46,389 bases of DNA from positions 1-46,389 of the forward strand of contig JBDROZ010000085.1 in the NCBI GenBank assembly GCA_043809585.1. The letters are read 5' to 3'. The translations under genes and the position numbers were made by a program. Positions 15,708 to 29,707 of the stretch are shown one piece after another; positions within the stretch are counted from its first letter, which is position 1; the number at the start of each line of letters is the position of its first letter. The notes below the pieces were generated by a model that saw nothing but the letters and a program-made list of their open reading frames with translations, made no database searches and was not told the DNA's origin. The stretch comes from Candidatus Eiseniibacteriota bacterium (GTDB lineage: Bacteria; Orphanbacterota; Orphanbacteria; Orphanbacterales; Orphanbacteraceae).

Positions 15708-16140
15708 CGCGGTCCGAGGTCGATGCTACTGCGGCCCGCGATCGCCGGCTGCGAAACCGTTCTCCTTCACCGCCGTCCTCGACGGGGCTGAGGCCCCGCC
15801 TCCGGTCGTCGGTTCGTCCGAACGGGCTCTCGCCCGGCGCTCGCGACCCTCGTGACGAATCGACCTCGGACCGCGAACACGGGGAATCCGGAACGGAAGC
15901 TTCCCCCAGAGCGGGCTCTCGCCGCGCGCTCCCGGCCCTCGCCCTGGAATCGACTTCGGATTTCGGACCCACGGACGGGGAGGGACCGTTCCTTCAAGAG
16001 AGGTTTCAGAGCGGGCTCCCAAGCCTCGTGACGAATCGACCTCGGACCACGGACACGGGGGATCCGGAATGGAGACCTCCCCCCGACCGAACGCTCGCCC
16101 GGCGCTCGCGACCCTCGTGACGAATCGACCTCGGACCGCG
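15708..16140. repeat. composite intergenic repeat array (one inverted and four direct copies, ~86-90 bp period)
   Basis: Core GAATCGAC(C/T)TCGGA at 15857, 15947, 16033 and 16122; 47-bp identity between 15829-15875 and 16094-16140; inverted copy starting at 15708. Confidence 0.9.
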
Positions 16141-16230
16141 GCTCGCTCCGGGCGTCGCGCGTCTTCCTTTTTGGACGGTGAATGAGCGCCCGGCCGCCCC
16201 CTTGCCGCCGTTCTGATGTACATTCCTCTC

Positions 16231-17428: not shown

Positions 17429-17749
17429 GTGGCCACGAAGAAGAAGGCAACGTCTAAGGCTAAAGTGAAAGCGGCGCCCAAGAAGAAACGAGTCGCGAAG
17501 AAGAAAGCCACCAAGAAGAAAGCGACGAAGAAGAAAGCCACGCGCAAGAAAGCGACCAAGAAGAAAGCCAGGCGCAAGAAGGCGACCAAGAAGAAGGCGA
17601 CCAAGAAGAAAGCGACGAAGAAGAAAGCCACGCGCAAGAAGGCGACCAAGAAGAAAGCGACCAAGAAGAAGGCCAGGCGCAAGAAGGCGACCAAGAAGAA
17701 AGCGACCAAGAGGAAAGCCAGGCGGAAGAAAGCCACGAAGAAAGCCTAG
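17429..17749 (+). CDS. histone H1-like Lys/Ala-rich repeat protein
   Basis: Tandem KK(A)TK/KKARR pentapeptides encoded by 15-bp repeats with synonymous variation. GGAGGTG RBS fits the GTG start at 17429; ATG 17423 is an alternative. Confidence 0.85.
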   Translation: MATKKKATSKAKVKAAPKKKRVAKKKATKKKATKKKATRKKATKKKARRKKATKKKATKKKATKKKATRKKATKKKATKKKARRKKATKKKATKRKARRKKATKKA

Positions 17750-25390: not shown

Positions 25391-25536
25391 GATTTCTTTC
25401 CTCCCTCGGATTCCGTCGTTCGTGATTGGAGTACGGCCGGGGAGGGACTTTTGTTCAGTGGGCGTCGAAATCGCGGGCGGGCGGGCCGGGCCGGGCCGGC
25501 GAACCCAGGCGTAACAATCGGAAAATCAGTCGATTA

Positions 25537-25725
25537 GCCTTGATCTTTCACAAGATCTCGGCGGAGAACGCTATTCCTCGCGTGCCGGCACGCCATCCGG
25601 AACCGTACTCGCCCTCACGATGGCTCACGTATTGTGAAATGCGCTCCCCATGGTTCGGGCTGCGTGCGGCCCCGGCTGACGCACTCTCACGCGTTGGATC
25701 TCGAGATTTTGTGAAAGATCAAGGC
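25537..25725. mobile_element. MITE-like non-autonomous element (189 bp)
   Basis: 24-bp terminal inverted repeats GCCTTGATCTTTCACAA(G/A)ATCTCG with one mismatch, flanked by TA on both sides; no ORF. Confidence 0.8.
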
Positions 25726-26420
25726 TAGATCTCGGTCTCGTTCGCCCTCCGGGCGTAGGGGATCGGATCTTCGGCGTTGTTCGCCCGGAAGGCGGCCAGC
25801 CGGAGTCGGCAGGAATCGCAAACGCCGCACCCCTCCTCCTCCCCCCGATAGCATGACCAGGAGAGCTCGAAGGGGACGCCCAGTTCCAGGCCGAGGCGGA
25901 CGATCTCCGCCTTGGAACGGCGAATGAGGGGCGTGACGATGCGGATCCCTTCCCCCCGGGCGGCCCCCCGCCGGACCGCCTCGCCGAAGGCTTCGAAAAA
26001 CGACTCCCGGCAATCGGGGTACCCCGACGAGTCCTCCTCCACGGCGCCGATGTAGACGGCGGTCGCGTCGATCACCTCGGCCCAAGAGACGGCGATGGAG
26101 AGCAGGCCTCCGTTCCGGAAGGGAACGTACGACGTGGGGATCTCCCGTCTGTCGATCCCGTGCTCCCGGAGAGGGATCGAGGCGTCGGTGAGGGCCGAGC
26201 CGCCGATCGCTCCGAGGACGGGGAAGGCGCATTCGAGCTGTCGCTCCACTTCGAAGTGGTCGGCGATCGCTCGGAAGGCGGCGCGCTCCCGCCTCTCGGT
26301 CCGCTGGCCGTACGAGACATGGAGAAAGGACGGATCGCCGTCCCGGGCGGCGATCGCCGCCGTCACCAGGCTGTCCATGCCGCCGCTGACGAGAACCACC
26401 GACCGTTCCCTGTTCGTCAT
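25725..26420 (-). CDS. queC: 7-cyano-7-deazaguanine synthase
   Basis: LVSGGMDS, SYGQR, SYVPFRN, YPDC and SWSCY...CGVCDSCRLR motifs. Confidence 0.97.
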   Translation of the reverse strand: MTNRERSVVLVSGGMDSLVTAAIAARDGDPSFLHVSYGQRTERRERAAFRAIADHFEVERQLECAFPVLGAIGGSALTDASIPLREHGIDRREIPTSYVPFRNGGLLSIAVSWAEVIDATAVYIGAVEEDSSGYPDCRESFFEAFGEAVRRGAARGEGIRIVTPLIRRSKAEIVRLGLELGVPFELSWSCYRGEEEGCGVCDSCRLRLAAFRANNAEDPIPYARRANETEI

Positions 26421-26422
26421 GG

Positions 26423-27058
26423 TCACACCCCCCGGGTCTTCTCGGGCCAGAGGAGACGGTGGAGTTGGATCTGCAGGCGGGCGGGGAGCCGGTCTTCGAG
26501 AATCCACTCGCCGAGGTCCCTCGGGGTGGTCCGCCCGTGGGCGGCGGAGAAGAGGACGGCCCCCTTCCATCCGGCGAGTCGGTTCTCGACCACCCGCTTC
26601 GCCCACAGGTAGTCTTCCCGGTCCGTCACCACGAACTTGACCTCGTCCTCGTCGCGGAGAAGCTCCAGGTTTCTCCAATACATGTCCCCGTCGTGACCGC
26701 TCCCGGGGCATTTGCAGTCGAGGATCTTGATGACCCGGGGATCGACGCCCTCGACCGAAACGTGTCCACCCGTCTCGACCACGACCTCGAAGGCCGCTCC
26801 GAGGAGGAGGTCGATCAGCGCGGGGAGTTCGGGCTGCTCGAGCGGTTCGCCGCCCGTCAGAAGGACGAGGGGAATGCCGAAGGAGCGGACCGTCTCCGCC
26901 ACCCGCTCGGGCGTCATCTCCTCGCCGCCGCGGAAAGCGTAGGCCGTATCGCAGTAGCGGCAGCGGAGCCTGCAGCCGGTGAAGCGGACGAGCACTGAGG
27001 GGCGGCCGCTCCGGGTGCCCTCCCCCTGGAGGCTCGCGTAGATCTCCGTCACTCTCAT
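26423..27058 (-). CDS. queE: 7-carboxy-7-deazaguanine synthase (radical SAM)
   Basis: EIYASLQGEG, RFTGCRLRCRYCDT, TGGEPL, ETGG and QLH motifs. Confidence 0.96.
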   Translation of the reverse strand: MRVTEIYASLQGEGTRSGRPSVLVRFTGCRLRCRYCDTAYAFRGGEEMTPERVAETVRSFGIPLVLLTGGEPLEQPELPALIDLLLGAAFEVVVETGGHVSVEGVDPRVIKILDCKCPGSGHDGDMYWRNLELLRDEDEVKFVVTDREDYLWAKRVVENRLAGWKGAVLFSAAHGRTTPRDLGEWILEDRLPARLQIQLHRLLWPEKTRGV

Positions 27059-27279
27059 CGTCGGCGCCCCGCCCCCTTTCCGTGAAAACGGGCACGGCGC
27101 AGGCCGTGCCCCCGAGGCTCTCGGACTTCAATGTACCACGCCCGGCGATGGATGGGAAGCCGATCGGGGAGGCTCGGTCCTTTTTCCATTCTCCTATTTA
27201 TTGGCGCGAGAAAGAGCCGCCCTGCTTCCGGATACGACCCGGCGGTGGGCCGGAAGTTCCGTCCCCCGCGGTTCTTCGC

Positions 27280-27308
27280 TTGACCTTTCCCCCTTAAAAT
27301 GTTATGGT
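27280..27308 (+). promoter_or_regulatory. sigma70-type promoter with extended -10, firing into a non-coding region
   Basis: TTGACC-N17-TATGGT with TGn upstream of the -10. Confidence 0.65.
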
Positions 27309-27311
27309 CAG

Positions 27312-27690
27312 TTCACCTTTGAGAAGAAGGTGCCTTTCGACGATTTGGTGAAGCAGAGAACGAAGTGGACACGAGATCGGCCCAAGGGGAGGATCCTACG
27401 ATCCTCCCCTTGAGCGCATGGGGGGGTGTCTAACCGTAAGCCTCCGAGCGAACACGAGGCAGGCCATCCGGCGTTCTTCGCGCCGCCCCGTGGGGCCGAA
27501 GCGCGGGTAGACAGCCCTTCCGTCATTTCCGTTCGAGTCGGGCCACTTTCTCGCCCCACGAGCCGGGTTCGCCGCAGAAGCGGTGAAGGCTCGATCGGAA
27601 ATGAAGAAGCCCCCCGCTTGTGGCTCGTGTCATTCCCAGCCCGGAAACAGGCGCCAAGTCCCTTCCGCGTCTATGTATAGGGACCCACGA
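27312..27690 (+). ncRNA. candidate large structured non-coding RNA (family not recognised)
   Basis: Nested helices 27368-75/27624-31, 27383-95/27400-12, 27427-36/27504-13, 27523-39/27588-604 and 27568-75/27580-87. G-U pairs favour the + strand; promoter directly upstream; no credible ORF. Confidence 0.6.
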
Positions 27691-27813
27691 TCACGAGTGA
27701 AGCAGGGGGCTCCATATTGCTCAGCCATTATCTCATTCCCGCTGGTAAGAATCAAGCCATTTATCCGGTAAACTGCAGATATTTTGACAAATCTCCAGCC
27801 GGGGCCGGTCGCC

Positions 27814-27843
27814 TTGACAGGGGCCGGAAAGCGGTGATAGCCT
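27814..27843 (+). promoter_or_regulatory. sigma70-type promoter of etfBA
   Basis: TTGACA-N18-TAGCCT with TGn extension, about 80 bp before the etfB ATG. Confidence 0.6.
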
Positions 27844-27921
27844 CTCCCGGAAAGAGTTGGCATTTCGACCCATCCGGACACCATCCCGGTCCGGAGCGAA
27901 TCCCCGGAGGCTGGAGGAATC

Positions 27922-28719
27922 ATGAAGGCCATCGTCTGCGTGAAAGAGGTGCCCGAAACCCCCGATGGGGTCCGGGCCACCGATCAAGGCTACCTTTCGG
28001 CGAAGGAGGACGGGAGCTTCCTCGTCGACCCGATCGGGCCGTATGCCGTCGAGACCGCCCTTAGGCTCCGCGATCAAAAGGGGGGCGAGGTGGTGGTGAT
28101 CTGCCAGGGGACGGCCCGGGCGGAAAAGATCCTGAAGGAGTCGGCGCTCGCCGTCGGCGCGAACGAGGCCTTTCTCCTCGCCGACGACGCGATGAAAGGG
28201 GCCGATCCCCATGCCACGGCGCGGGCCCTTGCCGCCGCCATACGCAAGGTGGGAGGGTATGACATCGTCCTCTGCGGCGACCGCGCCGCGGACGACAACG
28301 CGGCGATCGTGGGGCCCGCCCTCGCGAGGCTTCTCGACATCCCCGCCCTGACCTTCGTGGACGAGATCCTCGAGTTCGACCCCGACGCCAAGACGATCAA
28401 AGTGGCCCGGGGGCTCGAGAACGGCCGGGAGATCGTCGAGTCCTCCCTGCCCGCGGTGGTGACCGTGATCAAGGGTATCTACGAGCTCCGCTATCCGTCC
28501 CTCCTCGGGATCCGGAAGGCGGCGAAGAAGGAAGTGCCGGCCTGGACCGCCGCCGATCTCGGCGAGGATCCGTCCGGCATCGGCATCGCCGGTTCTCCCA
28601 CCTTCATCCGGGCATTGAACCCGCCCCCCGCGGCGGGCGCGGTGGAGATGATCCAGGGGGAGCCGAAGGAAATGGCGGACGCGCTCGTGCGGAAGATCAT
28701 GGACGCGAAGATCCTGTAG
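27922..28719 (+). CDS. etfB: electron transfer flavoprotein beta subunit
   Basis: MKAIVCVKEVP, AVETALRL, DIVLCG..AAD, LPAVVTV, LRYPSL and GIAGSPT motifs. Confidence 0.95.
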   Translation: MKAIVCVKEVPETPDGVRATDQGYLSAKEDGSFLVDPIGPYAVETALRLRDQKGGEVVVICQGTARAEKILKESALAVGANEAFLLADDAMKGADPHATARALAAAIRKVGGYDIVLCGDRAADDNAAIVGPALARLLDIPALTFVDEILEFDPDAKTIKVARGLENGREIVESSLPAVVTVIKGIYELRYPSLLGIRKAAKKEVPAWTAADLGEDPSGIGIAGSPTFIRALNPPPAAGAVEMIQGEPKEMADALVRKIMDAKIL

Positions 28720-28732
28720 GGAGGCGGCTACG

Positions 28733-29707
28733 ATGGCGGAATCGATTTGGGTTGTGGCGGAACGCGCGGCCTCCGGGATTTCGCGCGCGACGAAAGAGGC
28801 GATCGGCAGGGCGAAGGAGCTCGCCGGCGGTCCGGTCGCGGCGGTGCTCTGCGGTTCGGGGACGGACGGAGAGATCGAAGAACTGAAGAAAGCGGGCGCC
28901 GGCCGGGTGATCGTTCTCGAGGACCCGCGGCTCGTCCCGCACCGTGTCGACGTTTGCGCGCCGGCCCTCGCGGCGCTCGTGAAGGAGAGGAACCCCGAAG
29001 CGGTCTTCATCCCCGGCTCCATGAGCGGCCGGGAACTGGGCGCCGCCCTCGCCACCGATCTCGGCGGCGGAGCCGTGCAGGACTGCGTCGACCTGACGAG
29101 GGAGGGCGACAAGCTCATCGGTAAGCGCCCCTGCTTCGGCGGAAACCTGACGGCGGAAGTCGAGAACCGCTCGGCGGGGACCAAGGTGTTCACATTGAAG
29201 CCGAAGGCGTTCCCCCTCCCTCCGGAAGGGGACGGGGCGGGCGAGACGGAAAAGGTCGCGGCGGCCCTTCCCGCGGGGGATCTCCGGGCGAAGGTGCTCG
29301 AGGTCGTCCGGGAAGCGGGGAAGACGATCAACCTGGAAGAGGCGGACGTGATCGTCGCCGGTGGACGGGGGCTCGGCAAACCGGAGGGCTTCGACACCCT
29401 CCGGGAACTCGCCGACGTGCTCGGCGGGGCGATCGGCGCCTCCCGGGCGGTCGTCGATTCCGGTTGGATTCCTTATCCCCACCAGGTGGGTCAGACGGGC
29501 AAAACGGTGAAGCCCAAGCTCTACATCGCGTGCGGGATCTCCGGCGCCATCCAGCACCTCGCGGGCATGCGGACGGCCGACAAGATCGTCGCGGTCAACA
29601 AGGACGCCAACGCGCCGATCTTCAAGGTGGCCCACTACGGTCTCGTGGGGGATCTCTTCGAGATCGTTCCGCTTCTGACGGAGGGGTTCCGGAAGGCCCT
29701 GCAGTAG
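28733..29707 (+). CDS. etfA: electron transfer flavoprotein alpha subunit
   Basis: [45 protein letters not shown] and NKDANAPIF motifs. Confidence 0.97.

Follow-up and report, generated by a model that had tools for sequence, protein, structure and literature searches.

What does the long intergenic gap in front of etfB encode in a member of Candidatus Eiseniibacteriota, one large structured RNA or something made of smaller parts? The DNA analysed here, which we call the window, comprises 46,389 nucleotides (nt) of contig JBDROZ010000085.1, and the gap (27059-27921, 863 nt) is flanked in it by a QueE-like gene, encoded on the minus strand, and by etfB/etfA, encoded on the plus. An earlier note, drawn from the sequence alone, had read the gap as the seat of a single multibranched plus-strand RNA of about 300-400 nt, of no recognised family. 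On the evidence of sequence comparison, the gap is a real, conserved and promoter-equipped structured RNA locus outside Rfam. The single RNA fared worse, being left without support by an insert private to this genome, a degraded closing helix, the modularity of the locus and a 3' module that favours the minus strand.

We put at roughly 55% the probability that the locus consists of two small clade-specific RNA genes facing each other tail to tail, and not of one large RNA. Unit A would be read from the plus strand, starting at about 27315 from a promoter that we call P1, and would comprise a 5' hairpin, a local helix (GAUUUGGUG/CACGAGAUC) and a GC-rich hairpin, H2; a short U-rich run comes after H2 in relatives, and the RNA would probably end there, at about 105 nt. 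Unit B would be read from the minus strand, starting at about 27720 from a second promoter, Panti, and ending in a U-rich tail near 27597, which gives a length of about 125 nt. In this genome, a lineage-specific structured insert would separate the two. We infer that both units are made as discrete RNAs. Such a pair of genes would explain the strict synteny with etfB, the loss of unit A as a module, the tolerance of the insert and the opposite strand preferences of the two ends.

Conservation and modularity of the locus

Homologs of the locus were sought and found upstream of etfB in all nine genomes of the family that were examined, two of which carry it only in a diverged form, and in three further metagenomic lineages. 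A DNA search of 41 genomes returned homologous blocks in four of the eight other genomes of the same family, corresponding to positions 27314-27411 and 27597-27711 of the window; two matches outside the family (22 and 37 nt, E 8.9e-4) were treated as chance. With a gapped pattern, the contigs of assembled genomes yielded two stretches (one true, one coding) and those of metagenomes eight (seven true, one coding), and the seven true metagenome stretches represent four distinct sequences, of which three are new lineages (M139, M141 and M142). The pattern matches L137 and L143, which lie inside coding sequence, were dropped as chance. From the contigs of assembled genomes, a looser pattern recovered three records only, titled "Candidatus Eisenbacteria bacterium", "Gemmatimonadetes bacterium" and "bacterium", and a 15-mer pattern, which matched at least 120 stretches in unrelated phyla, was discarded as too unspecific.

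Covariance models, the E-values of which are rough by the tool's own statement, gave strong matches before etfB in seven of ten genomes of the phylum. In the window, the model of unit A (R3) scored 89.6 bits at 27314-27412 and that of unit B (R2) 121 bits. Among the 151 genomes searched, none outside the family gave a convincing match (three weak ones scored 21.7-26.1 bits). R3 recognised unit A at this locus only, its weak matches elsewhere turning out to be an ordinary gene-end terminator (G005) and coding sequence. The sister family, represented by a single genome (G009), has etfB and its promoter and no such RNA. One alignment made with the covariance models (A5) contained chance matches and was excluded from all counts; the fixed-structure counts given below come from alignment A4.

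The window's own genome carries the 406-nt stretch in single copy. It also has, on the minus strand of C104 (33990-34113, locus L168), a weak match to the model of unit B (23.1 bits, E 0.009), with the same CCCUGC/GCGGGG closing helix including a U.G pair, a CUCGUG...CACGG pairing and a U/C-rich tail. The gene downstream of it has a start resembling a signal peptide, and no promoter was seen there.

The two blocks do not always travel together. In G001 and G005 only the 3' part of the models was matched, and in G002 and G006 a diverged version was recognised by eye (10-12 bits with filters off) that has neither a match to the unit A model nor P1. In all four genomes, then, the 3' module is present and no 5' module can be recognised, with Panti and the U-rich tail kept in every one of them. 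The homology of G002 and G006, like part of the promoter conservation reported below, was judged by eye.

What lies between the blocks in the window is a structured insert of about 185 nt (27413-27596) that is absent from all 11 other versions and falls exactly between the two modules. As a result, 400 nt separate the -10 element from the end of the conserved part here, and the corresponding span is 235-258 nt in the seven other versions that are complete. The insert consists of an arm (about 27419-27522) and, at 27523-27604, an enlarged form of a short hairpin (H3). Both arms that the earlier note had described in this part are present, at 27423-36/27504-17 and 27523-37/27590-604. The insert folds better than shuffled sequence to a similar extent on the two strands (z -2.4 on the plus, -2.6 on the minus) and occurs once in the genome. 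Local alignments of unit A, the insert and unit B with one another gave no significant similarity (z at most 1.6, save one trivial coordinate overlap), and the idea that the three are mutual duplicates was rejected.

These results bear on the possibility that P1 drives one large multibranched plus-strand noncoding RNA, of about 400 nt here and about 250 nt in relatives, held together by a long-range helix and perhaps switching between alternative CACGAG/CUCGUG pairings. Its proposed closing helix joins GACACGAG at 27368-75 to CTCGTGTC at 27624-31. The complementarity exists, and the 5' domain (GACACGAG..CC..AAGGG) can indeed pair with the 5' strand of the 3' domain; as a closing helix, however, it does no better than chance. 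Aligned locally with the 3' part in reverse complement, the 5' part reached a z of 0.9, and 66 of 300 shuffles did as well. Among the homologs, the 3' partner (CUCGUGUC) is invariant and the 5' partner is degraded in three of eight (GACUCUGAG in M141, GAACGAGAG in G003 and GACAGGAG in M139), with no compensating change. The changes in G003 and M141 preserve the local helix GAUUUGGUG/CACGAGAUC of unit A, which in G003 forms nine continuous pairs (GGUCUCUUG/CGAGAGAUC).

A large plus-strand RNA would also agree with the conservation of P1, with the lack of a plus-strand terminator between P1 and etfB in the window and with the repetition of CACGAG. Between 27300 and 27730 the plus strand has four copies of this motif (27370, 27453, 27557 and 27692), two of them within the insert (27453 and 27557), against a single CTCGTG (27624); over the whole window the counts are 37 and 20. 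On the other hand, the central 185 nt are specific to the window and four genomes do without the 5' domain, the long-range partner changes uncompensated, the 3' domain pairs better on the minus strand, as detailed below, and a conserved minus-strand promoter is left unexplained. We therefore regard a single large RNA as quite unlikely.

Strand preferences and transcription signals

The 406-nt stretch does fold better than shuffled controls, and the z of -3.57 on the plus strand (-181.1 kcal/mol) is a further point for a large plus-strand RNA. The minus strand, though, does so too (-186.5 kcal/mol, z -4.12).

The 5' module (27314-27412) favours the plus strand. Its core comprises the 5' hairpin (27314-27332), the local helix GAUUUGGUG/CACGAGAUC (27342-27350 with 27370-27378), which has a purine-rich internal loop, and H2 (27383-27412), a hairpin of 12-13 pairs, already recognised in the earlier note, the apex of which covaries. 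Consensus folding of the module with RNAalifold gave -14.65 kcal/mol on the plus strand and -8.70 on the minus, and the minimum free energy of single sequences was better on the plus strand in six of eight. In the local helix, 84.7% of the cells are paired, compared with at most 53% when the partner is slid, and 12 of the cells are G-U on the plus strand.

The 3' third (27597-27720) has the look of a unit of its own on the minus strand. On that strand, the structured core (27610-27709) is enclosed by a closing helix, GAGCCCCCUGC/GCGGGGGGCUU (27700-27712 with 27607-27619), followed inwards by a CUCGUG/CACGAG helix (27692-27697 with 27624-27629, and 27688-90 with 27630-32), a hairpin (27679-27686 with 27656-27663) whose loop holds the motif GACGCGGA, and a small hairpin at 27639-27652. 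The GTCCCT/AGGGAC hairpin of the earlier note is present here (27658-63/27679-84). The long helix encloses a three-way junction that is kept in the eight long forms, in which the 15-nt loop with GACGCGGA is invariant; the short forms of unit B are devoid of the loop motif.

The window's unit B folds at -54.6 kcal/mol on the minus strand (z -2.6, with the minimum free energy structure close to the centroid) and at -45.1 kcal/mol on the plus (z -1.4). RNAalifold agreed, with -37.0 versus -33.5 kcal/mol for eight sequences and -33.0 versus -23.6 for ten. When a fixed structure of 30 pairs was scored over the ten sequences, the minus strand gave 232 Watson-Crick pairs, 30 G-U pairs and 7 A.C mismatches (90.0% paired), whereas the same columns on the plus strand gave 7 G-U pairs and 30 A.C mismatches (82.1% paired). 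The earlier note's statement that G-U pairs work on the plus strand only thus fails for this third of the locus. The 90.0% compares with 84.4% in shuffles and at most 53% with the partners slid, and 11 pairs change on both sides, a number reached by 1 of 500 shuffles.

Individual positions illustrate the asymmetry. The pair 27704/27615, in the closing helix, is U.G on the minus strand and a C.A mismatch on the plus, and is invariant in all ten sequences and, by eye, in G002 and G006 as well. Another pair passes on the minus strand from U-A (four sequences) through U-G (three) to C-G (three), the middle state being a C.A mismatch if read on the plus. In G001, UCCGUG/CACGGA takes the place of CUCGUG/CACGAG.

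Transcription signals are in line with this arrangement. The promoter described in the earlier note was recovered as P1 (27280-27308, plus strand; TTGACC, 17 nt, TG-T-TATGGT) and was flagged by the promoter scan, as were its counterparts in loci L004, L139 and L142. The pattern TTGAC-N15-20-TGnTAnnnT occurs at the same place in all eight sequences that have the 5' module. Panti lies on the opposite strand (27755-27727), with TTGATT as its -35 box (27755-27750), a 17-nt spacer and TG-A-GATAAT, so that a start 7 nt beyond the -10 element, near 27720, would give a presumed 5' leader of unit B at 27710-27720. P1 and Panti are the only promoter-like sites flagged between 26900 and 28100, where 0.1 would be expected. 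The plus-strand motifs ATTATnnCA, CAAGC and GrTAAAC with its T-run, all conserved on the downstream side of the structure, are the reverse complements of the extended -10 element of Panti, its -35 box and the AT-rich stretch upstream of it.

The strict Panti pattern (TTGnnn-N14-TGn-nAnAnT) is present in eight of ten sequences. At the same position G008 has TGG-CATCAT and G004 TGG-CATGCT, as judged by eye, and the promoter also occurs in G002 and G006. Its -10 element stands 14-23 nt from the structured core in six of the eight pattern matches (the other two being G005, with 31 nt, and G001, with 117 nt). The scan flagged Panti in four of the seven loci scanned (the window, L004, L151 and L170).

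As for the ends, the U-rich tail CUUCUUCAUUUCC (27597-27609, minus strand) is the presumed 3' end of unit B. The 12 nt that follow the closing helix contain 4-10 T on the minus strand in all ten sequences, compared with 2-6 for the corresponding tail on the plus strand, and a minus-strand terminator was flagged at the equivalent place in L170 (G002) only. In most versions H2 makes a weak terminator, and L139 is the only locus in which the scan flagged it.

Several observations weigh against two small opposed genes. The terminator scan flags neither unit in the window, and the helix that would serve as terminator of unit B, with about 80 nt inside it, is no canonical hairpin. As the window's H2 lacks a U-run, the plus-strand RNA probably extends into the insert, and transcription on that strand may cross unit B. 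Panti went unflagged in three of the seven loci (L139, L142 and L152), where its -35 box matches at three of six positions. Single-sequence energies of unit B are mixed, the minus strand being better in five of eight and the plus in three (G003 by 6.8 kcal/mol, G005 by 2.4 and M139 by 0.3), and the diverged G002 also folds better on the plus strand (-42.8 versus -37.7). Beside CUCGUG, two conserved U/G positions pair only on the plus strand, in six to eight of the ten sequences. Finally, the G-U asymmetry comes largely from invariant columns (10 cells from one pair, 8 from another) and therefore represents few independent events, and the strand call as a whole rests on about six or seven independent lineages.

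The etfBA neighbourhood and possible roles

The genes of etfBA are the only ones that constantly adjoin the locus, with etfB downstream of it in every true homolog. In the window, etfB (27922-28719) and etfA (28733-29707) lie on the plus strand and match the Pfam families ETF and ETF_alpha, with NCBIfam in agreement. The gene on the other side varies, most relatives carrying other genes there. Here it is a radical-SAM gene outside the RNA locus (26423-27058, minus strand; Pfam Radical_SAM and Fer4_12) for which QueE is the best NCBIfam match (TIGR04349), scoring 251 bits where the cut-off is 300. Open reading frames (ORFs) of 44-84 aa within the gap correspond to no Pfam family.

The separate etfBA promoter noted earlier, here P2 (27814-27843, plus strand; TTGACA, 18 nt, TG-A-TAGCCT, that is, TTGACA...TGATAGCCT), is present and is kept in the aligned relatives and in G001, G002, G006 and G009; every version examined has a P2-like element between the RNA and etfB. 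It went unflagged in the promoter scan of the window. The -35 boxes of Panti and P2 stand back to back about 60 bp apart, and between the two promoters runs a conserved AT-rich stretch (27760-27780) with GGTAAAC at 27767-27773. The motif GrTAAAs is kept in the five aligned loci and in the further loci inspected; it is seen at equivalent places of L004, L005, L139, L141, L142, L151, L152 and L170. With its A/T flanks, this motif may represent an UP-like element or be bound by a shared regulator.

G005 has an additional stretch of about 1.15 kb separating the promoter of unit B from etfB (locus L151, 1600-2760). This stretch, which includes a promoter-like TTGACC...TATATACT and an ORF of 88 aa, may be an insertion of foreign DNA.

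The constant neighbourhood of etfB could mean that the P1 transcript is a long leader running into etfBA, with the 3' module acting in cis and with Panti, through an antisense RNA or through collision of polymerases, gating the read-through. Strict synteny in every version, the weakness of H2 as a terminator in most versions and its missing U-run in the window, convergent promoters 240-450 bp apart and the U/G positions beside CUCGUG that pair on the plus strand only are all compatible with such a leader. Against it stand the conserved, separate P2 between the RNA and etfB and the 1.15 kb that intervene between module and gene in G005. Moreover, the scan of 27315-27921 found no terminator-like site or expression platform on the plus strand, and the long and short forms share no conservation of the kind expected of a ligand pocket. 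We thus hold a leader to be unlikely. Still less probable, in our judgement, is a version of this idea in which Panti and mutually exclusive pairings between a single CUCGUG and the repeated CACGAG segments would form a new type of two-strand RNA switch that gates read-through from P1 into etfBA; if it were true, expression of the flavoprotein would be set by a device of sense and antisense structured RNAs and not by a protein regulator alone.

Another way to account for the conservation of unit B is to see in it no functional RNA but a strong two-way terminator or insulator hairpin that shields the control region of etfBA from transcription arriving from P1 and from the genes upstream, Panti being a by-product or serving the upstream minus-strand gene. 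The most conserved part is indeed a GC-rich closing helix with a flank that is U-rich on the minus strand and A-rich on the plus, and H2-like hairpins do serve as ordinary terminators in this clade, as the R3 match in G005 illustrates. Yet the 15-nt loop is invariant and the three-way junction is kept in the eight long forms, and about 100 conserved nt exceed the needs of a plain terminator. Panti has a fixed place, 14-31 nt from the helix, in seven of the eight pattern matches, and the minus-strand gene downstream of it differs among genomes. We consider an insulator improbable.

If unit B is, as we prefer, a small RNA gene of its own, candidate interaction sites are its loop, invariant in the eight long forms, and the invariant lower helix that carries the U.G pair. 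It is tempting to suggest, although only tentatively, that unit B is a regulatory small RNA controlled together with etfBA through the divergent region of 60-100 bp and acting through the loop GACGCGGA or the lower helix. A genome-wide search for sites complementary to the loop was uninformative (191 clusters of at least 10 nt, none longer than 12 nt besides the gene itself). Duplex folding against the etfB leader, tried as a target search, gave full-length duplexes that are not interpretable, and the z values of unit A duplexes (several between -2.9 and -5.2) were left unused, having been obtained against only 20 mononucleotide shuffles.

The titration of CsrA by GGA motifs in one or both units, in the manner of CsrB or RsmZ, was also considered. 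The genome encodes CsrA (C81:39277-39423, 55.3 bits) and Hfq was not found in it, at a rated completeness of 97.5%. The unit A internal loop contains GGAGCGGAGCGGA in G008, G004, G007 and M142 and three GGA in M139, and the invariant loop of unit B ends in GCGGAAGGGA. In the window, however, unit A has only two GGA, the triple motif being lost (GAACGAAGUGGA), and G003 and M141 have one and two, respectively; the short forms of unit B have no loop motif to offer. Known CsrA sponges have many more GGA sites. This role seems to us very improbable.

Relation to known RNAs and other features of the window

Whatever their role, the two units have no counterpart among catalogued families, as the earlier note had anticipated. 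No Rfam match reached the gathering score anywhere in the window. Between 27000 and 27960, Rfam 15 (4227 models, E up to 10) gave four matches, all with E of 4.6 or worse, the best known of them (Moco riboswitch) scoring 13.3 bits where the threshold is 36, and six homologous loci gave none. The locus is not one of the housekeeping RNAs either, since 6S (RF00013, C44, 57.1 bits), RNase P (RF00010, C117, 292.8 bits) and the signal recognition particle RNA (RF00169, C78, 73.1 bits) were all located elsewhere in the genome. At the level of literature listings, none of the best 10 of 229 papers on RNA motifs mentioned etfB, and searches on small or noncoding RNA in Eisenbacteria returned a single unrelated paper each.

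In kind, the locus is a new family of an ordinary sort, that of small RNAs that run from promoter to terminator. OxyS, divergent from oxyR, and GcvB, divergent from gcvA, are stand-alone small RNAs with a sigma-70 promoter and an intrinsic terminator. Our units resemble them in that each places a short structured RNA between a promoter that is conserved and a GC-rich helix leading into a U-rich run, in that unit B has a divergent control region in common with its conserved neighbour, and in that both occur in a single clade only. Here, though, the neighbour is a metabolic operon and not a regulator, the terminator of unit B would be the closing helix of the whole RNA, Hfq was not found, and there is no relationship in sequence or in Rfam.

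A convergent arrangement has precedents as well. Type I toxin-antitoxin loci of the txpA/RatA type pair a toxin mRNA with a convergent antisense RNA, and resemble the present locus in having short convergent transcription units, strong promoters and structured RNAs. They differ from it in that, by Pfam and alignment, no small ORF is conserved here, the ORFs of the gap being crossed by the indels and the 185-nt insert that distinguish the relatives, and in that the predicted transcripts of units A and B need not overlap.

Convergent pairs of small RNAs are also known from lambdoid prophages of E. coli O157, where the anti-sRNAs (anti-small RNAs) AsxR and AgvB are phage-borne, Hfq-binding and 51-60 nt long (PMC4104026). 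The likeness lies in two small RNA genes placed tail to tail in one intergenic gap, which might be mistaken for one long structured leader. Our units differ in their predicted lengths of about 105 and 125 nt and in being chromosomal, beside etfBA in an uncultured clade, with no detected Hfq and no homology to that pair.

By comparison, OLE, GOLLD, ROOL and raiA, all of them in Rfam, and riboswitch-like leaders share with our locus a GC-rich, multi-helix intergenic stretch with a promoter of its own and some covarying helices. In contrast to them, it has no Rfam match on either strand and no conserved long-range architecture, its middle is unconserved and its two ends favour opposite strands.

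Other repetitive features were noted elsewhere in the window. A 193-bp element at 25535-25727 has terminal inverted repeats of 26 nt (96% complementary) and 71 matches in its own genome. Of these, 40 are at least 70 nt long, with identities of 68-100%, and several stand at the ends of contigs. The element resembles a repeat family of the miniature inverted-repeat transposable element type. A tandem repeat with a unit of 89 nt is found at 15818-16141 (3.7 copies, 65% matches). An array with a period of 15 nt, and also of 30 and 45 nt, occupies 17496-17742 (consensus AAGAAGAAAGCGACC, about 14.7 copies) and is probably part of an ORF; it would encode a Lys-rich repeat on one strand.

For scans of genomes, the locus carries a caution, as a long foldable intergenic region can consist of two opposed short genes and a lineage-specific insert. 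Fold energy by itself, favourable here on both strands, cannot separate these cases. If the two-gene account is true, an uncultured clade would have a pair of uncatalogued small RNA genes fixed beside etfBA, for the annotation of which two covariance models would be usable. It would also provide a handle on RNA-based regulation of redox or fatty-acid metabolism in a phylum without genetics.

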